Source of the DNA: Candidatus Staskawiczbacteria bacterium | Lineage (GTDB): Bacteria; Patescibacteriota; Minisyncoccia; Minisyncoccales; Staskawiczbacteraceae | Direction of reading: 5' to 3' | Length of the DNA stretch: 64,000 nucleotides | Assembly: GCA_023245195.1 (NCBI GenBank) | Contig: JAHFKU010000001.1 | Span: 27,662-91,661, forward strand | Part shown: in pieces, positions 3,756-9,325 of the stretch | How positions within the stretch are numbered: the stretch's first letter is position 1 | Layout: every line of letters begins with the position of its first letter | Translations under genes and position numbers: made by a program | The notes under the pieces: generated by a model | Seen by the model: the letters and a program-made list of their open reading frames with translations, nothing else | Database searches by the model: none | What the model was told of the DNA's origin: nothing

Positions 3756-5595
3756 TTTATTTAAAAAAACGGTGGCAAAAAGAATGCTGTTTTTCATTGC
3801 AGCTGATGTTTTTTTTATTGCCCTTTCCATTTGGCTGGCTTTTTTATTCAGATTTGACGGTAAAATTCCAGCCCAGTACGATCCTTTTATTTTGAGGATG
3901 ATAGTACTAGCCATTATTTTTATCATACCGATTTTTTATTTTCACAAATTGTATTCTTTTTCCTGGTCATACGTGAGCGCCAGCGAACTGGTATCGTTAT
4001 TTAATGCTACCACTATTTCTTTTATATTTTTAAGCATTGCTATTTTTATATCCCACTATTTTCCCCATTTTACGAATTTCCCAAGATCAACTATTTTTAT
4101 AAGTTATATATTGGTCTTTATTTTTACCAGTGCGATACGTTTTTCAAAACGGGTTTATTCCCACAGGTTAGAATTTAAAAGAATTCAGGGACAGGAAAGA
4201 ACGCTCATTGTAGGAGCCGGCGACGCGGGCGAGCAAATTTTAAGAAGTATCCTGTCTTCAAAGATTCACGCTTATTTTCCTATTGGATTTGTCGATGATA
4301 ATCCCATGAAAAAGGGAGTTAAAATCCACGGGCTTAATGTATTTGGGAAAATTTCTGATATACCGGCTATTGTAACAAGTCAGCAAATTAAGCAGTTGAT
4401 TATTGCGCTTCCTTCGGCTAGTTCTACCGCCATAAGAAATGCGGTTGAGCTTGGCAAAAGTGCTGGAGTGCGCAAGATTAAAATTGCCCCGCCTCTCAAT
4501 GAAATTATCCGAGGCCAGGTATCTTTGAAAAATTTACGAGATGTTGATGTGGAAGATTTGCTGGGGCGAGACGCCGTGGTACTGGATAAAAAACAGATAG
4601 AACAATTTATAAAAAATAAGATAGTATTAATTACAGGAGCTGCCGGTTCTATCGGTTCTGAACTTTCGCGCCAGGTGGCAAAGTTTAAGCCATCACTGTT
4701 AGTTTTATTGGATCAAGACGAAACTGGCATGTTTCATATTGCTGGTGAAATAAAAAGTAAGTTTGATACCGTGATTACCCAATCTTTAGTGGCAGATATA
4801 ACCGACAAAGAGAAAATGCACGAAGTATTTGGTCGCTATCATCCGGAAATAGTATTTCATGCCGCTGCTTATAAGCATGTTCCATTAATGGAAGACCAGC
4901 CCGATGAAGCTGTAAAAAATAATATTTTTGGCACCAAGGTTTTAATAGAAGCGAGCCTTAGTGCTCGCGTGCAGAAGTTTATTTTTATTTCAACTGACAA
5001 GGCGGTGAACCCTACATCAGTTATGGGTGGCAGTAAGCGAATTAGCGAGATGCTTTGCCAGGCTTATAACCAAAAAAACAGCACTAAATTTATTTCTGTA
5101 CGCTTTGGCAATGTGCTAAATAGCAGGGGTAGTGTTATTCCTATTTTTAAAGAACAAATCAGAAGAGGGGGGCCGGTGGAAGTTACACATCCCGAAATGC
5201 AGCGATATTTCATGTTAACCAGCGAAGCGTGTTTGCTCGTTATGCAGGCAGGAGCCATGGGCCAAGGGGGCGAAGTGTTTGTGTTGGACATGGGCAAACC
5301 CGTTAAAATTTTGGACTTAGCGCGGGAAATGATACGGTTGTCAGGATTTGAACCCGACAAAGATATCGCCATTATTTTTACCGGAATCCGGCCCGGAGAA
5401 AAATTATTTGAAGAAATTTTGACTGCCCAAGAAGGAGTTGCTGCCACTCAGCACCAGAAAATTTTTATCGCCAAGATGGCCGATGTGCATTTTTCTAATA
5501 TCAATGCCACGTTAGACGATTTAAAGAACAGTATCTATAAAAACAATAAAGAGATGATTGCCAGCAGTATTAAACATATAATTCAAAGTTCTTAA
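3748..5595 (+). CDS. CapD/PglF/WbpM-like membrane-anchored nucleotide-sugar 4,6-dehydratase
   Basis: N-terminal TM segments followed by a Rossmann fold (LITGAAGSIGSEL) and an SDR catalytic region; 4-nt overlap with the upstream aminotransferase. Confidence 0.85.
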   Translation: MIDLFKKTVAKRMLFFIAADVFFIALSIWLAFLFRFDGKIPAQYDPFILRMIVLAIIFIIPIFYFHKLYSFSWSYVSASELVSLFNATTISFIFLSIAIFISHYFPHFTNFPRSTIFISYILVFIFTSAIRFSKRVYSHRLEFKRIQGQERTLIVGAGDAGEQILRSILSSKIHAYFPIGFVDDNPMKKGVKIHGLNVFGKISDIPAIVTSQQIKQLIIALPSASSTAIRNAVELGKSAGVRKIKIAPPLNEIIRGQVSLKNLRDVDVEDLLGRDAVVLDKKQIEQFIKNKIVLITGAAGSIGSELSRQVAKFKPSLLVLLDQDETGMFHIAGEIKSKFDTVITQSLVADITDKEKMHEVFGRYHPEIVFHAAAYKHVPLMEDQPDEAVKNNIFGTKVLIEASLSARVQKFIFISTDKAVNPTSVMGGSKRISEMLCQAYNQKNSTKFISVRFGNVLNSRGSVIPIFKEQIRRGGPVEVTHPEMQRYFMLTSEACLLVMQAGAMGQGGEVFVLDMGKPVKILDLAREMIRLSGFEPDKDIAIIFTGIRPGEKLFEEILTAQEGVAATQHQKIFIAKMADVHFSNINATLDDLKNSIYKNNKEMIASSIKHIIQSS

Positions 5596-5597
5596 CT

Positions 5598-5963
5598 ATG
5601 GATCATTTTAAACGCGTTGCCAATGATGCTCGAAAAAAAGTGCTCGAAATGGTACACAGGGGTCAAACCAGCCATATCGGGTCTAATTTTTCTTCCATGG
5701 ACATTCTGGCCGTTTTGTTTTCTAAATTGAATTTAGATAAAGATTTAAAGCCGGATCGCGATCGATTTGTGCTTTCCAAGGGTTGGGTAGCCGCCGCTTT
5801 GTATTACTTCTTAGCCGAAAAAGGCATTATTCCCAAAGAAGACTTAGAGGAATTTGGCAAAGAAGGATCCCCATATATCGGTTTGGCTGAGGTGATGGAA
5901 AAAGAAGTACCATGTGATTCTTGCCATGGGACAGGGATTGACGATAAACCGATTAAAAACTAA
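5598..5963 (+). CDS. Transketolase N-terminal subunit, fragment a (split gene), with non-transketolase tail ending CDSCHGTG
   Basis: HIGSNFSSMDILAVLF and DRDRFVLSKG align to the transketolase thiamine-diphosphate domain up to about GSPYIG. It then diverges into EVPCDSCHGTGIDDKPIKN. Confidence 0.7.
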   Translation: MDHFKRVANDARKKVLEMVHRGQTSHIGSNFSSMDILAVLFSKLNLDKDLKPDRDRFVLSKGWVAAALYYFLAEKGIIPKEDLEEFGKEGSPYIGLAEVMEKEVPCDSCHGTGIDDKPIKN

Positions 5964-5972
5964 AATTAATAT

Positions 5973-6521
5973 GTGGTTAAAACTTGCCAAACTTGTAATA
6001 AAGAATTTATACCAAAGGATGACAGGCCATCAAGACCTGCTAAGTTTTGTTCGCGTAGATGCATTCGAAACAGTACTCAGTTTAAAATAGGTCACAAACT
6101 TACGCCGCTTGGAAATAGGCGATGGGATAATCCGGCCACAAAGATGACATGGTTTAAAAAAGGTGTTCATTCATATCCTTTTGCTACCAATTTTAAGAAA
6201 GGATTTACGCCATGGAACGCGGGAAAAGATTTCGGAGGGACGGAATATATAGCAAAAAGAATAACTTGGTTGCAACAATATAAGAAATGGAAAAAAGAAA
6301 TTAAAATTAGGGATAATTTAAAGTGTATTCAATGTGGTAGTATTAAAAATCTTAATGTTGATCATTATCCGATTTCTTTAGCTGCATTAATCAAAAAGTT
6401 CAACATAAAAAAACCACAAGAAGCAAAAGAGTTCAAAGATTTTTGGGATAAAGGTAATGGCAGGACTCTTTGTCTTTCCTGTCATAAACAAACAGACACT
6501 TATGGAAAAAACTTCGTGTAA
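5973..6521 (+). CDS. Free-standing HNH endonuclease inserted within the transketolase gene
   Basis: N-terminal CxxC...CxxC zinc ribbon; C-terminal CIQCGS...VDHYP...N...CLSCH HNH motif. Confidence 0.75.
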   Translation: MVKTCQTCNKEFIPKDDRPSRPAKFCSRRCIRNSTQFKIGHKLTPLGNRRWDNPATKMTWFKKGVHSYPFATNFKKGFTPWNAGKDFGGTEYIAKRITWLQQYKKWKKEIKIRDNLKCIQCGSIKNLNVDHYPISLAALIKKFNIKKPQEAKEFKDFWDKGNGRTLCLSCHKQTDTYGKNFV

Positions 6522-7044
6522 AAAATGTAACGGTACCGGAAAGATAAAAGAGAATTTCATACCAGTAAATTCTGGGGCCATGGGCCACGGGTTACCCATT
6601 GCTTTAGGTATGGCTCTGGCGGCAAAACGTGGCAATGAAGCATGGAAAACCTACGTTTTAATGTCCGATGGAGAACTGGATTGCGGCACCACTTGGGAAT
6701 GCGCTTTGTTGGCGGGTCACCAGAAATTAAACAATCTAGCAGTAATTATAGATTACAATGGCTTCCAAGCCATGGGCACTAAAAAGGAAGTATTAGACGT
6801 GGAACCGCTGGCTGATAAGTGGCGCGCTTTCAATTGGGAGGTCGTAGAAATTGATGGGCACGATTACCAACAGATAAGCGATGCTTTAGATAAAATTACT
6901 ACTGCCCAAAAACCATTGGTGATTATCGCCAAAACCACTAAAGGGAAAGGAGTCTCTTTTTTTGAAGGAAAGCTAGAATGGCACTACAAAACCATCGACC
7001 AAGAGCATTATCAAAAAGCCTTAGAAGAATTAACTAAAGATTAA
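6502..7044 (+). CDS. Transketolase N-terminal subunit, fragment b (split gene), with N-terminal CKKCNGTG
   Basis: GAMGHGLPIALGMALA, LMSDGELDCG and IIDYNG align to the second half of the transketolase thiamine-diphosphate domain. The track start is 6457; the internal ATG at 6502 is more likely and overlaps the HNH gene by 20 nt. Confidence 0.7.
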   Translation: MEKTSCKKCNGTGKIKENFIPVNSGAMGHGLPIALGMALAAKRGNEAWKTYVLMSDGELDCGTTWECALLAGHQKLNNLAVIIDYNGFQAMGTKKEVLDVEPLADKWRAFNWEVVEIDGHDYQQISDALDKITTAQKPLVIIAKTTKGKGVSFFEGKLEWHYKTIDQEHYQKALEELTKD

Positions 7045-7050
7045 CATCAT

Positions 7051-7614
7051 ATGATGGATGATAAGCAATCATCAATCCCTGGCTTTACCAAGGGATTGCC
7101 AAATGAGATACAAAAAGAAACAACGGCCCGCAACGCCCGCGGCGTTTTTATGGAAACTCTGGAAGAATTAGTTCAAAAAGATCCGCGCATTATATTAGTG
7201 GTGGGAGACGTCGGTTTTTCCTACATGCAGGAATTTCAAAAAAAATACCCAAATCAATACATCAACACCGGCGTCATGGAACAATCTTTTATGGGGATCG
7301 CAGCGGGACTAGCCCAAAGTGGATGGAAACCGTATGTGTATTCTATGGTTCCGTTTGTCATTATGCGAAACTACGAACAGCTACGAAACGATGTCTGTTA
7401 CGCCAATGCTAATGTGAAACTGATCGGCGCGGTTGGCAATGTGCACTATCGCTTTCAGGGCATGAGCCACAACTTACTGGGAACAGAAAACGAAGAAGAC
7501 TTATTAAAGAATCTTCCCAATATCCAGCGTTTTTATCCCAAAGATACCCAGGAAGTTAGAAAGATTGTGCTGGAAACATATCGCGATAGCAAACCGACCT
7601 ATATTAGGCTATGA
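7051..7614 (+). CDS. Transketolase C-terminal subunit, pyrimidine-binding domain only (lacks the C-terminal domain)
   Basis: MEQSFMGIAAGLAQSG, MRNYEQLRND and KLIGA match the transketolase Pyr domain. The ORF ends at PTYIRL, ~120 aa shorter than canonical C-subunits. Confidence 0.65.
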   Translation: MMDDKQSSIPGFTKGLPNEIQKETTARNARGVFMETLEELVQKDPRIILVVGDVGFSYMQEFQKKYPNQYINTGVMEQSFMGIAAGLAQSGWKPYVYSMVPFVIMRNYEQLRNDVCYANANVKLIGAVGNVHYRFQGMSHNLLGTENEEDLLKNLPNIQRFYPKDTQEVRKIVLETYRDSKPTYIRL

Positions 7615-7633
7615 TTAGGTCTAATCATAAAAA

Positions 7634-9325
7634 ATGAAAAAAATACTTTTTTTTGCCATTGTTTTTTTGGTGTTATTTCCGATAGCCAATGTAAAAGCCG
7701 CCAATGCCGGAGACATGGTGAATTTTAATGTAGATAAAAATTATGATGTAACTGCCAGGTCCCAAGTTACGGCATTGTTAGTTAAAACGGTTCCCAATCT
7801 CTATTTTTATATTGAAAAAAGTTGGTGGGATGCCCAGAGCTTGTCCCGGCAAAATGAAGTCTTGCATAATTTAGATGGTCTTTCTCAAGAATTTAATGAT
7901 AAGATATATCCCACGTTAACTTCATTCTACGGCTTTGAAGCAAGACCAGGGATTGATAGCGATAATAACATTACTATTTTATTTGAATCAGTTAATAATA
8001 ATCTTGGGGGATATTTTCGTTCGGCGGATGAATACAGTAAATTACAAGCTCCTGATTCCAGTGAACGGGAAATGCTTTACTTGCCAATTGCCCAAATTGA
8101 TAGCGCCCAGCTTAAGGTATTTTTAGCCCATGAGTTTGTTCATCTTATTGAGGCCAATCAAAAAGAACGGTTAAAAGGAGTCCAAGAAGAAGTTTGGTTA
8201 AGTGAAGCTAGGTCAGATTATGCATCGACTCTTTTGGGCTATGACGACACTTACGAAGGTAGTAATTTACAGCGGAGAGTGCAGGATTTTTTAAGCCAGC
8301 CGGGTGATTCTTTAACCGAGTGGCAGGGCACCAAATACGATTATGCGATTGAAAGCGTATTTATGCATTATCTGGTTGATCACTATGGGGTTGCCGTTTT
8401 GACTGATTCTTTGCATTCAAAATTAACTGGCATTCCAAGCCTTAACGAGGTGCTTGCCAAAAATGGGGCCCAAGAAACCTTTTCCCAGATTTTTGCCAAT
8501 TGGACAATATCAGTCGTTTTGAATAACTGCACCAATGGCGTAAAATACTGTTTTATCAATAAGAATTTAAGTAGTTTAAAAATAAATCCCAATTTAATTT
8601 TCTTGCCCTTGGTGGGCAGCAGTTCGCTTTCTATATCTAACGCTGTCAAAGATTGGGCAGGGAGTTGGCAAAAAATCATCGGTGGCAGCGGAGATTTAAC
8701 CTTAGAATTTTCGGGGCTTGGCGGCCTGGTTTTTAAGGTGCCCTATATTATCTACGATAAAAATAACACCTATACGGTCAATTTTTTAAATCTCGATAAA
8801 GATGGCAAAGGCCAAATTGATATTAAAAATTTTGGCAGCCGGTATAATTCTTTAGTTATCATGCCTTCGCTCCAATCAAAAATTTCTGGGTTTGGCGGGG
8901 CTGAAATCGCCCGTTCATATTCTTTTGTCGTTTCTATTACTGGCGATATCGTCCAAGAAAATCCCGCTTCAGTAAAGGATTTACTGGCGCAAATAGATGC
9001 CCTAAAAAAACAGATTGCTTTGTTGGAGCAAGGTAAAACACCGGCCGCATGCACCGCCATAACCGGCAATCTTGTTATCGGAATGGCGGGCAGCCAGGTA
9101 ACTTGCCTACAACAGTTTCTAAAAACGCAGGGGCCTGATATATATCCGGAGGGGCTGGTTACCGGGTTTTTTGGTAATTTGACAAAAATGGCCGTTATGC
9201 GTTTCCAGGAAAAATATAAGGCTGAAGTGTTGGCGCCTATTAACCTTTTGCAAGGCACGGGGTTTGTTGGAATATTAACCCGCCAGAAAATAAATCAATT
9301 ATTAAAATTTACCCCCACACCATAA
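7634..9325 (+). CDS. Secreted protein with a possible HExxH (HEFVH) motif and a C-terminal peptidoglycan-binding domain
   Basis: N-terminal signal peptide; HEFVHL motif; C-terminus CLQQFLKTQG...GFFGNLTKMAVMRFQEKY matches the PG_binding_1 pattern. Confidence 0.5.
   Translation: MKKILFFAIVFLVLFPIANVKAANAGDMVNFNVDKNYDVTARSQVTALLVKTVPNLYFYIEKSWWDAQSLSRQNEVLHNLDGLSQEFNDKIYPTLTSFYGFEARPGIDSDNNITILFESVNNNLGGYFRSADEYSKLQAPDSSEREMLYLPIAQIDSAQLKVFLAHEFVHLIEANQKERLKGVQEEVWLSEARSDYASTLLGYDDTYEGSNLQRRVQDFLSQPGDSLTEWQGTKYDYAIESVFMHYLVDHYGVAVLTDSLHSKLTGIPSLNEVLAKNGAQETFSQIFANWTISVVLNNCTNGVKYCFINKNLSSLKINPNLIFLPLVGSSSLSISNAVKDWAGSWQKIIGGSGDLTLEFSGLGGLVFKVPYIIYDKNNTYTVNFLNLDKDGKGQIDIKNFGSRYNSLVIMPSLQSKISGFGGAEIARSYSFVVSITGDIVQENPASVKDLLAQIDALKKQIALLEQGKTPAACTAITGNLVIGMAGSQVTCLQQFLKTQGPDIYPEGLVTGFFGNLTKMAVMRFQEKYKAEVLAPINLLQGTGFVGILTRQKINQLLKFTPTP

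Follow-up and report, generated by a model that had tools for sequence, protein, structure and literature searches.

A transketolase-like gene of a Staskawiczbacteria bacterium fractured by an HNH endonuclease gene, with one half of a putative zinc ribbon on each fragment

We analyzed a 64,000-nt stretch of the genome of a Candidatus Staskawiczbacteria bacterium (contig JAHFKU010000001.1, positions 27,662 to 91,661), referred to as the window, in which the gene for the thiamine diphosphate (ThDP)-binding subunit of a transketolase-like enzyme is broken into two fragments, a and b, by a free-standing gene for an HNH-type homing endonuclease. Each fragment carries a CxxCxGxG motif, or knuckle, at its broken end. 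We judge it reasonably probable that a mobile cassette consisting of a zinc ribbon and a homing endonuclease gene fractures the enzyme gene, and that the split ribbon re-associates the two halves of the enzyme. This proposal is built on the architecture of the locus, its recurrence in other genomes, the purifying selection acting on its parts, the existence of the ribbon in uninterrupted form, the presence/absence polymorphism of the insert and its mosaic flanks.

The fractured gene and its recurrence

The first-pass annotation of this DNA, made from the letters alone, had described an HNH open reading frame (ORF) lying between two transketolase fragments, and we confirmed both the layout and the coordinates (Table 1). 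On the Pfam Transketolase_N profile (PF00456, cutoff 22 bits), fragment a matches positions 3-104 with 35.2 bits and fragment b positions 104-270 with 77.1 bits; the two are thus exactly contiguous, without gap or overlap. A search with fused a+b returned hundreds of intact homologues, 260-270 aa in length. The closest of these, P0001-P0019, are 81-91% identical to the window's protein over shared columns and read uninterrupted through ..GLSEPEVRGVEVAGGAMGHG.. (longer stretch, ..GKEGSKYIGLSEPEVRGVEVAGGAMGHGLPIALG..), with no Cys motif. (Related proteins and loci carry P- and L-numbers; W is the window's own locus.) The gene is therefore split within a loop, and approximately 650 nt (roughly 5910-6561) are extra, which bears out the earlier proposal of a genes-in-pieces enzyme produced by a free-standing HNH gene. 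The inserted cassette consists of knuckle 1 with a stop codon, the HNH gene, and a start codon followed by knuckle 2 and a linker (..KIKENFI).

Table 1. Coordinates of the fractured gene, its cassette and the partner gene in the window
Feature	Coordinates	Strand	Remarks
Fragment a, ThDP-binding (pyrophosphate-binding, PP, domain) subunit of transketolase-like enzyme	5598..5963	+	121 aa; Transketolase_N match
Host-derived body of fragment a	ends at ~5909		ends at about ..GLAEVMEKEV; remainder is cassette-derived tail and stop
Tail of fragment a	to 5960, TAA 5961-5963	+	aligned with insert-less relatives
Inserted cassette, class I site	5910..6561, boundaries +/- ~2 codons	+	W/L001/L007/L008 aligned with insert-less P0019, P0018, P0001, P0011, P0199
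Knuckle 1, CDSCHGTG (CxxCxGxG)	5913..5936	+	C-terminal tail of fragment a
Free-standing HNH-type homing endonuclease gene	5973..6521	+	GTG start, 182 aa; PHROG HNH match
HNH/b overlap	6502..6521	+	20 nt; ATG of b within the HNH family's invariant T-Y-G codons (ACT TAT GGA)
Fragment b, same PP-domain subunit	6502..7044	+	180 aa; GxMGxG and SDGE..N ThDP-binding motifs
Knuckle 2, CKKCNGTG (CxxCxGxG)	6517..6540	+	N-terminal head of fragment b
Partner subunit, pyrimidine-binding (Pyr) domain only	7051..7614	+	187 aa, ends ..YIRL; Pfam Transket_pyr 5-167 of 174

Fragment a ends in ..GSPYIGLAEVMEKEVPCDSCHGTGIDDKPIKN (longer stretch, ..EEFGKEGSPYIGLAEVMEKEVPCDSCHGTGIDDKPIKN) and shares its reading frame with the HNH ORF, the two being separated by two stop codons and a 9-nt spacer before the GTG. 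Fragment b, with its N-terminus MEKTSCKKCNGTGKIKENFIPVNSGAMGHGLPIALGMALA, is read in a different frame from both, and its ATG lies 20 nt within the 3’ end of the HNH ORF. Since this ATG falls inside the T-Y-G codons, the 3’ end of the nuclease gene supplies the start codon of fragment b. A second in-frame ATG at 6457 (MAGLFVFPVINKQTL..; window 6457-6501) recurs in most relatives and is a by-product of the nuclease’s conserved NGRTLC..CH codons in another frame; it is absent in L008 and L016, making 6502 the start common to the relatives.

Nuclease genes are commonly carried in introns and inteins, and split-intein ‘fractured genes’ around a free-standing nuclease gene are known (PMC2677866). 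Nonetheless, restoration of an intact protein by splicing or recoding, whether through a group I or II intron, an intein, a split intein or ribosomal bypass, is contradicted by the sequence and very unlikely at this locus. A search for Rfam intron families detected none in 5300-7800, even at E up to 10, and none at gathering score across the whole window (1-64000), which at that score holds no Rfam family of any kind and no tRNA gene. Fragments a and b are in different frames; neither the tail of a (~18-22 aa) nor the head of b (~17 aa) is nearly long enough for an intein half, and both are devoid of intein blocks. Pfam detected no intein or Hint domain on the fragments, and we saw no intein motifs on reading the tail and head. 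The 540-nt gap, occupied by a translated ORF, is also unlike the 50-nt bypass of T4 gene 60.

The order fragment a, nuclease gene, fragment b and Pyr-only subunit recurs in at least 12 distinct metagenomic lineages, which we reached via fragment-b-like proteins and the HNH family (W, L001-6, L007, L008-11, L012, L013-15, L016, L017, L018, L028, L116 and L115). Among them, L017 is from Parcubacteria Gr01-1014_30 and L018 from Wildermuthbacteria. The first-pass annotation had suggested looking in other candidate phyla radiation (CPR) genomes for the uninterrupted allele and for homologous HNH insertions; both were found, the former as insert-less homologues. Homologous cassettes occupy two sites approximately 13 codons apart, both within the window-like clade of the enzyme: the class I site, after ..GLAE.xxxEV (window, L001-11 and L115), and the class II site, after ..SYCQx (L012, L013, L016-18, L028 and L116).

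We estimated nonsynonymous (dN) and synonymous (dS) divergence among W, L001 and L007 by the Nei-Gojobori method. The body of fragment a gave dN of 0.06-0.11 with dS from 1.5 to saturated, and the body of fragment b dN of 0.12-0.16 with dS >2. Corresponding values were dN ~0.11 and dS 0.8-1.1 for the HNH gene (dN/dS ~0.1), and dN ~0.1 and dS 0.5-1.0 for the tail (dN/dS ~0.2). The window’s fragments also retain every family-invariant column (49/49), and together with dN far below dS this indicates that both halves and the nuclease are functional genes under purifying selection. An interrupted gene beside a partner lacking Transketolase_C could be taken for a decaying pseudogene, killed by the nuclease insertion and left as drifting fragments. 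We reject that explanation as highly improbable, given the low dN relative to dS across lineages and the retention of all family-invariant residues; moreover, the split arrangement persists across hosts only ~50% identical, and a short Pyr-only partner is normal in intact members of the family.

The putative zinc-ribbon knuckles

A six-frame scan of all 64 kb for C..C.G.G in ORFs of at least 50 aa returned two motifs only, at 5913 and 6517, compared to a chance expectation of ~0.05 per window (a rough estimate from typical Cys and Gly frequencies). The two perfect motifs reported at the broken ends in the first-pass annotation are thus the only such motifs in the window. The tail and head peptides are alike as protein (8/18 residues) and 48% identical as DNA (26/54 bases), matching the earlier figure of about 50%, and no direct repeat was found flanking the insertion; target-site duplication was rejected on these grounds, in line with the earlier argument against a recent one. 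The knuckles are perfect in every HNH-type split locus, in 9/9 visible tails and 14/14 heads. None of the four Cys, and neither Gly of either knuckle, varies across these loci; the other tail residues are 38-47% identical. L013 seemed to lack the head knuckle, which proved to be a gene-calling artefact, as its ORF, taken from stop to stop, reads MGKTTCQRCNGEGKAQSPFIGL.

A search with the fused class II pair recovered uninterrupted relatives that contain both knuckles in one insert (P0135/L108, P0174, P0210, P0229 and P0230). P0135/L108 and P0174 encode a single ORF, ..SYCQRVICDRCRGTGKKLMGKTLCKKCNGSGKVWSKWIGL.., equivalent to the L012 tail and head joined in frame, and no nuclease gene is present at the locus. 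P0210, P0229 and P0230 have ribbons in the same place that are more divergent and differ in their linkers, and in two of the five uninterrupted proteins (P0229 and P0230) one knuckle is degraded. The presence of uninterrupted two-knuckle inserts in relatives indicates that the knuckles are halves of one module. The first-pass annotation had regarded a CxxCxGxG insert in intact homologues as incompatible with its interpretation. Such inserts occur in some relatives but not in the nearest ones, and because they identify the knuckles as halves of one module they strengthen the split-ribbon reading. The insertion event seen here did not make the knuckles; the ribbon is a separate module that also exists without the nuclease.

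An AlphaFold model of P0210 (mean pLDDT 86.5) places four strands in the insert (residues 88-120, pLDDT 71-74), at 88-91, 100-103, 106-109 and 115-119, which form two predicted hairpins with C91/C94 and C109/C112 at their tips. The earlier idea that the two knuckles make up a split ribbon thus gains strong support from the comparison with P0135/L108, P0174, P0210 and P0229, along with this double-hairpin model. Sequence searches matched the ribbon to the DnaJ zinc domain and to nothing else (NCBIfam PRK14278, E 2e-4; PDB 1EXK, E 0.017), and the modelled arrangement resembles the DnaJ cysteine-rich domain (1EXK) in having CxxCxGxG knuckles on beta-hairpins. Unlike DnaJ, the ribbon has two knuckles rather than four, its matches lie below curated cutoffs (20 bits against 502 for PRK14278) and there is neither a J domain nor a chaperone context; the zinc site is putative. 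The split alleles are broken between the hairpins, within the linker, and each polypeptide thus keeps one complete knuckle. Judged from the sequences and the model, one knuckle per chain is the geometry that a putative inter-chain four-Cys site would require.

The knuckles might instead serve the nuclease, with their coding DNA acting as the homing or recognition site or as an expression signal for the HNH gene, and the peptide motif arising as a by-product. In favor of this, W, L001, L007 and L008 share TGCAATGGGACAGGG.T.GAC even at synonymous positions, the tract overlaps a promoter-like TTGACG-17-TAAAAT that lies just ahead of the HNH start, and knuckle 2 overlaps the 3’ end of the HNH gene. 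On the other hand, the DNA of the knuckles differs between class I and class II cassettes while C..C.G.G is invariant, so a DNA-level role does not explain the invariance, and uninterrupted ribbons keep the motif where no nuclease gene is present. We therefore consider this explanation improbable, although the TGCAATGGGACAGGG.T.GAC tract could serve as a signal for expression or as a sequence that the nuclease recognizes and, to go by its conservation, a DNA-level role may add constraint within class I. The promoter-like TTGACG-17-TAAAAT (10/12 matches) lies at window 5923-5966, inside the tail of a just before the HNH GTG; promoter-like sites, internal terminators and an RNA hairpin at the HNH start were not found above shuffled expectation. 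Charge complementarity of tail and head, as in the phage Aeh1 proteins discussed below, was also considered: the tail is acidic and the head basic in the window, but both are basic in class II, so complementarity is not general.

The nuclease family, the mobility of the cassette and the host enzyme

The HNH ORF combines an N-terminal CxxC..CxxxC zinc module with a C-terminal CxxC..DH..N..CxxCH nuclease motif and is the only HNH-like ORF in a six-frame scan of the 64 kb. Six PHROG HNH families match it with E between 3.8e-7 and 1e-4, and the match to Pfam HNH (PF01844) falls below gathering score (13.7 vs 21.4 bits, E 0.07). Residues C118, C121, D130, H131, N162, C167, C170 and H171 are invariant among 14 family members. 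The family is small (14 clusters), and all 14 readable loci of relatives with at least 53% identity lie between two Transketolase_N fragments, a count that leaves out four further close HNH clusters. A more distant member (47-49% identical; L113:47-928) is located directly upstream of an intact, insert-less Transketolase_N gene, whose start is again an ATG within the nuclease’s T-Y-G codons; the family is thus associated with Transketolase_N even when not intragenic. The possibility that knuckles are a general trait of the wider HNH family was rejected after inspection of ~90 distant relatives (<=46% identity) taken from genome and metagenome scans, none of which has a flanking C..C.G.G or lies in a transketolase gene. 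One of 41% identity (L114) is in a phage-like context.

Insert-bearing alleles are scattered on the enzyme tree, and their nearest neighbour is usually insert-less. For instance, L001 is 91% identical to the insert-less P0019, the C-terminal half, with an odd insertion present in both, being nearly identical. Both (L001:6001-6558 and P0019), as well as P0265/L116, have an unusual GSGGQTKCDIFENK in place of the family’s GKGVSFFEGK segment; by sequence comparison, GSGGQTKCDIFENK marks a sub-lineage that holds insert-less, class I and class II alleles together. Similarly, L108 and the insert-less P0152 are 90-95% identical on both sides of the insert and 45-50% identical in the ~25 residues after it. 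Over these ~25 residues L108 instead matches L012 at 85-95% identity, although the N-terminal parts of the two are only 55-75% alike. As far as alignments can tell, this mosaic is the pattern expected of co-conversion during homing. The insert thus shows two features of mobile homing endonuclease genes, presence/absence among near-identical alleles and apparent co-conversion of the flanks. In close pairs of loci the HNH protein is less conserved than the enzyme (74-79% vs 84%), and in distant pairs it is more conserved (60-68% vs 49-52%).

The ribbon also occurs with a different nuclease or none. In L115:2440-3000, the ORF between the Transketolase_N fragments encodes NUMOD3 and Endonuclease_7 (PF02945, E 5e-16) domains rather than a member of the HNH family, in a frame that differs from the public gene call; the presence of this gene indicates that the ribbon linker hosts unrelated nucleases. 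The nuclease-free ribbon of L108 (3142-3285) still encodes ..QKTYGKNFVQKM*, the C-terminus of the HNH protein, in an alternative frame, and its junction shares a CAAAA microhomology with the L012 insert at either end. Its sequence thus suggests that the ribbon-only allele of L108 arose by deletion of the nuclease gene. The ribbon of P0210 contains no relic of the HNH C-terminus. In light of these comparisons the ribbon appears to be a module of its own, which exists with or without the nuclease gene and travels with it.

In L012:5001-5816, L017:3929-4744 and L028:101-919 the nuclease is 271-279 aa long as a result of duplication of its N-terminal CxxC..FCSRxC..FxKG..PWNKG module. Other, unrelated HNH genes lie directly upstream of fragment a and overlap its start in L017:3195-3620 (Pfam HNH) and L007:578-1270 (NUMOD3 and HNH). 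From such gene arrangements, the Transketolase_N locus looks like a hotspot for homing endonucleases. The HNH gene of L018 appeared to be degraded; this was only apparent, as the region is masked with Ns.

The first-pass annotation identified the host gene as a transketolase N subunit, a designation that holds as transketolase-like and fails for a canonical split transketolase. Pfam detected no Transketolase_C domain in the partner subunit (7051-7614), and the intact homologue P0001 scores 224 bits, far short of the 488-bit cutoff of the NCBIfam transketolase equivalog; the missing domain and the low scores make the enzyme transketolase-like. The best structural match of the modelled subunit is the alpha2beta2 split-gene transketolase PDB 6YAK (E 3e-20, 34% identity), which likewise reflects the tolerance of ThDP enzymes of this fold for separate PP and Pyr/C subunits. 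In 6YAK the split lies between domains, whereas here the PP domain is cut in a loop and the partner has no C-terminal domain. A Pyr-only partner of 161-187 aa follows the gene at all related loci, always ending in ..YIRL and lacking Transketolase_C, and is the norm for intact family members as well. With a DegT aminotransferase, a CapD/Polysacc_synt_2 dehydratase and the Pyr-only partner as neighbours, the context of the locus is a glycan/sugar-modification cluster. Throughout this CPR family the enzyme is a shortened, transketolase-like form encoded within DegT / CapD / Bac_transf sugar clusters. Named relatives come from Staskawiczbacteria and other Parcubacteria.

Proposed mechanism and its significance

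We propose that a mobile cassette occupies a surface loop of the PP domain in the form of a small DnaJ-type two-knuckle ribbon, whose linker houses the HNH gene. This cassette provides a stop after knuckle 1 and a start before knuckle 2 within the last codons of the nuclease, so that the enzyme is made as two polypeptides with one knuckle on each. Translation of a, HNH and b is probably coupled, as the stop of a lies 9 nt before the HNH start and the start of b within the end of HNH. In DnaJ, two knuckles jointly bind one Zn, and in the zinc hook of Rad50, two CxxC pairs from separate chains share one Zn. Most likely, the two knuckles here would jointly bind one Zn2+ through their four Cys, rebuilding the ribbon between the chains, and the rebuilt ribbon would hold a and b in register, allowing the PP domain to fold and pair with the Pyr subunit. 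The ribbon would thereby be a metal-mediated, non-covalent stand-in for intron or intein splicing that renders the nuclease insertion harmless. The nuclease would cut cassette-free alleles, and break-induced recombination would copy the cassette together with a short flanking tract. Zinc binding, Zn-dependent assembly, and the activity and target of the nuclease are the steps of this scheme that we infer.

Several observations weigh against this proposal. In the AlphaFold model of the window’s fused a+b the body is confident and the insert disordered (pLDDT 39-46), and the evidence from the P0210 model consists of pLDDT values and predicted strands. Part of the DNA of knuckle 2 also encodes, in another frame, the C-terminus of the HNH protein, and some of its conservation may be borrowed from the nuclease. 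The tail knuckle of a in L115 is imperfect (KCNCHAEKG), with a perfect head knuckle in b (CKKCHGTG). A 51-aa query combining the head with the TK motif, run against 1.84 billion representatives, gave 7 matches, including the new b fragments P0263-P0265, and no uninterrupted ribbon at the class I site. Finally, the tails of the phage Aeh1 ribonucleotide reductase are dispensable for the a-b heterodimer and needed for higher-order assembly (PMC3045599).

Some of these points would fit a ribbon that is only a passenger: a pre-existing loop insert serving the enzyme’s own ends (stability, or substrate or partner binding), into whose dispensable linker the nuclease landed, the fragments rejoining via the native PP-domain interface. 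The Aeh1 NrdA fragments heterodimerize without their tails (PMC3045599), which means that split domains can associate without a staple; an imperfect first knuckle is tolerated in L115; and uninterrupted ribbons with different linkers occur free of nuclease relics (P0210/L111, P0229 and P0230). However, most family members, including the closest relatives of the split alleles, have no ribbon, so it is not needed for catalysis. Ribbon and nuclease gene have together reached new allele backgrounds as well as a second site. Further, the knuckles are perfect in all HNH-type split alleles and degraded in 2/5 uninterrupted ones (P0229 and P0230), a comparison drawn from a small sample. We consider a passenger ribbon somewhat unlikely, though the most credible of the alternatives, and favor re-association of the halves through the split ribbon.

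The closest known arrangement is the nrdA-a/mobE/nrdA-b locus of phage Aeh1, where activity depends on the insertion-derived C- and N-terminal tails (Crona et al. 2011, PMC3045599). As in Aeh1, the nuclease gene and the ORF downstream of it overlap, each fragment has a tail and the tails are absent from the closest uninterrupted homologues. The mobE gene is intergenic in most phages and intragenic in Aeh1 (PMC3045599); the present HNH family is likewise found elsewhere as an intergenic gene beside an intact one (L113). The Aeh1 tails are oppositely charged, have no database matches and no metal motif, and dimerize heterodimers (PMC3045599), unlike those of this locus, which are recognizable halves of a ribbon that also exists uninterrupted. 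Rather than one phage, the present arrangement extends over at least 12 bacterial lineages and two sites, with a CPR bacterium as the host, and the class II site has ribbon-bearing uninterrupted alleles.

A second parallel is provided by the ‘fractured genes’ in which the halves of a split intein surround a free-standing homing endonuclease gene (Dassa et al. 2009, PMC2677866). Here too, the N-terminal part of the host gene with a half-module is followed by the nuclease gene and then by a half-module with the C-terminal part; in both systems the module also occurs continuous and nuclease-free, and different nuclease families may occupy it. Unlike inteins, the module is a zinc ribbon of ~30 aa that has no splicing blocks and is retained in the mature enzyme, and lacking such blocks its halves can at most be held together, not ligated. 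Compared with the Aeh1 tails and split inteins, what appears new from these sequences is a module that is a two-knuckle zinc ribbon and cannot splice. In the full-text literature on split genes, homing endonucleases, CPR and zinc modules, whose coverage was incomplete, we met no account of a homing endonuclease flanked by the halves of a zinc ribbon, which is absence of evidence only.

More tentatively, and with less confidence than in the mechanism itself, we suggest that the cassette may represent an unrecognized class of mobile element. Such an element would be an in-frame ribbon of ~30 residues in a surface loop, comparable to a non-splicing intein, that offers free-standing homing endonucleases of the HNH or Endonuclease VII type a landing pad and rejoins the separated chains via one shared Zn2+. 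It would cycle between an empty site, ribbon plus nuclease, and ribbon only, as inteins and homing endonucleases do.

The three life-cycle states, no insert, ribbon only, and ribbon plus nuclease, can be compared in these genomes, providing a testable system for neutral gene fission and the origin of split modules. With ~15-20 residues on each side, the halves of the ribbon may also offer a small natural tag, a “zinc staple”, for split-protein assembly. For annotation the locus carries a warning, as the fragments are now called as separate hypothetical or partial transketolase proteins. Selfish nuclease genes inside essential genes are thought to persist by means of self-splicing introns or inteins, with one studied exception to our knowledge, the phage Aeh1 ribonucleotide reductase with its charged tails. 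A halved zinc ribbon, found here repeatedly and under selection in the cellular genomes of CPR bacteria, would add a third and very simple solution, re-association mediated by metal.

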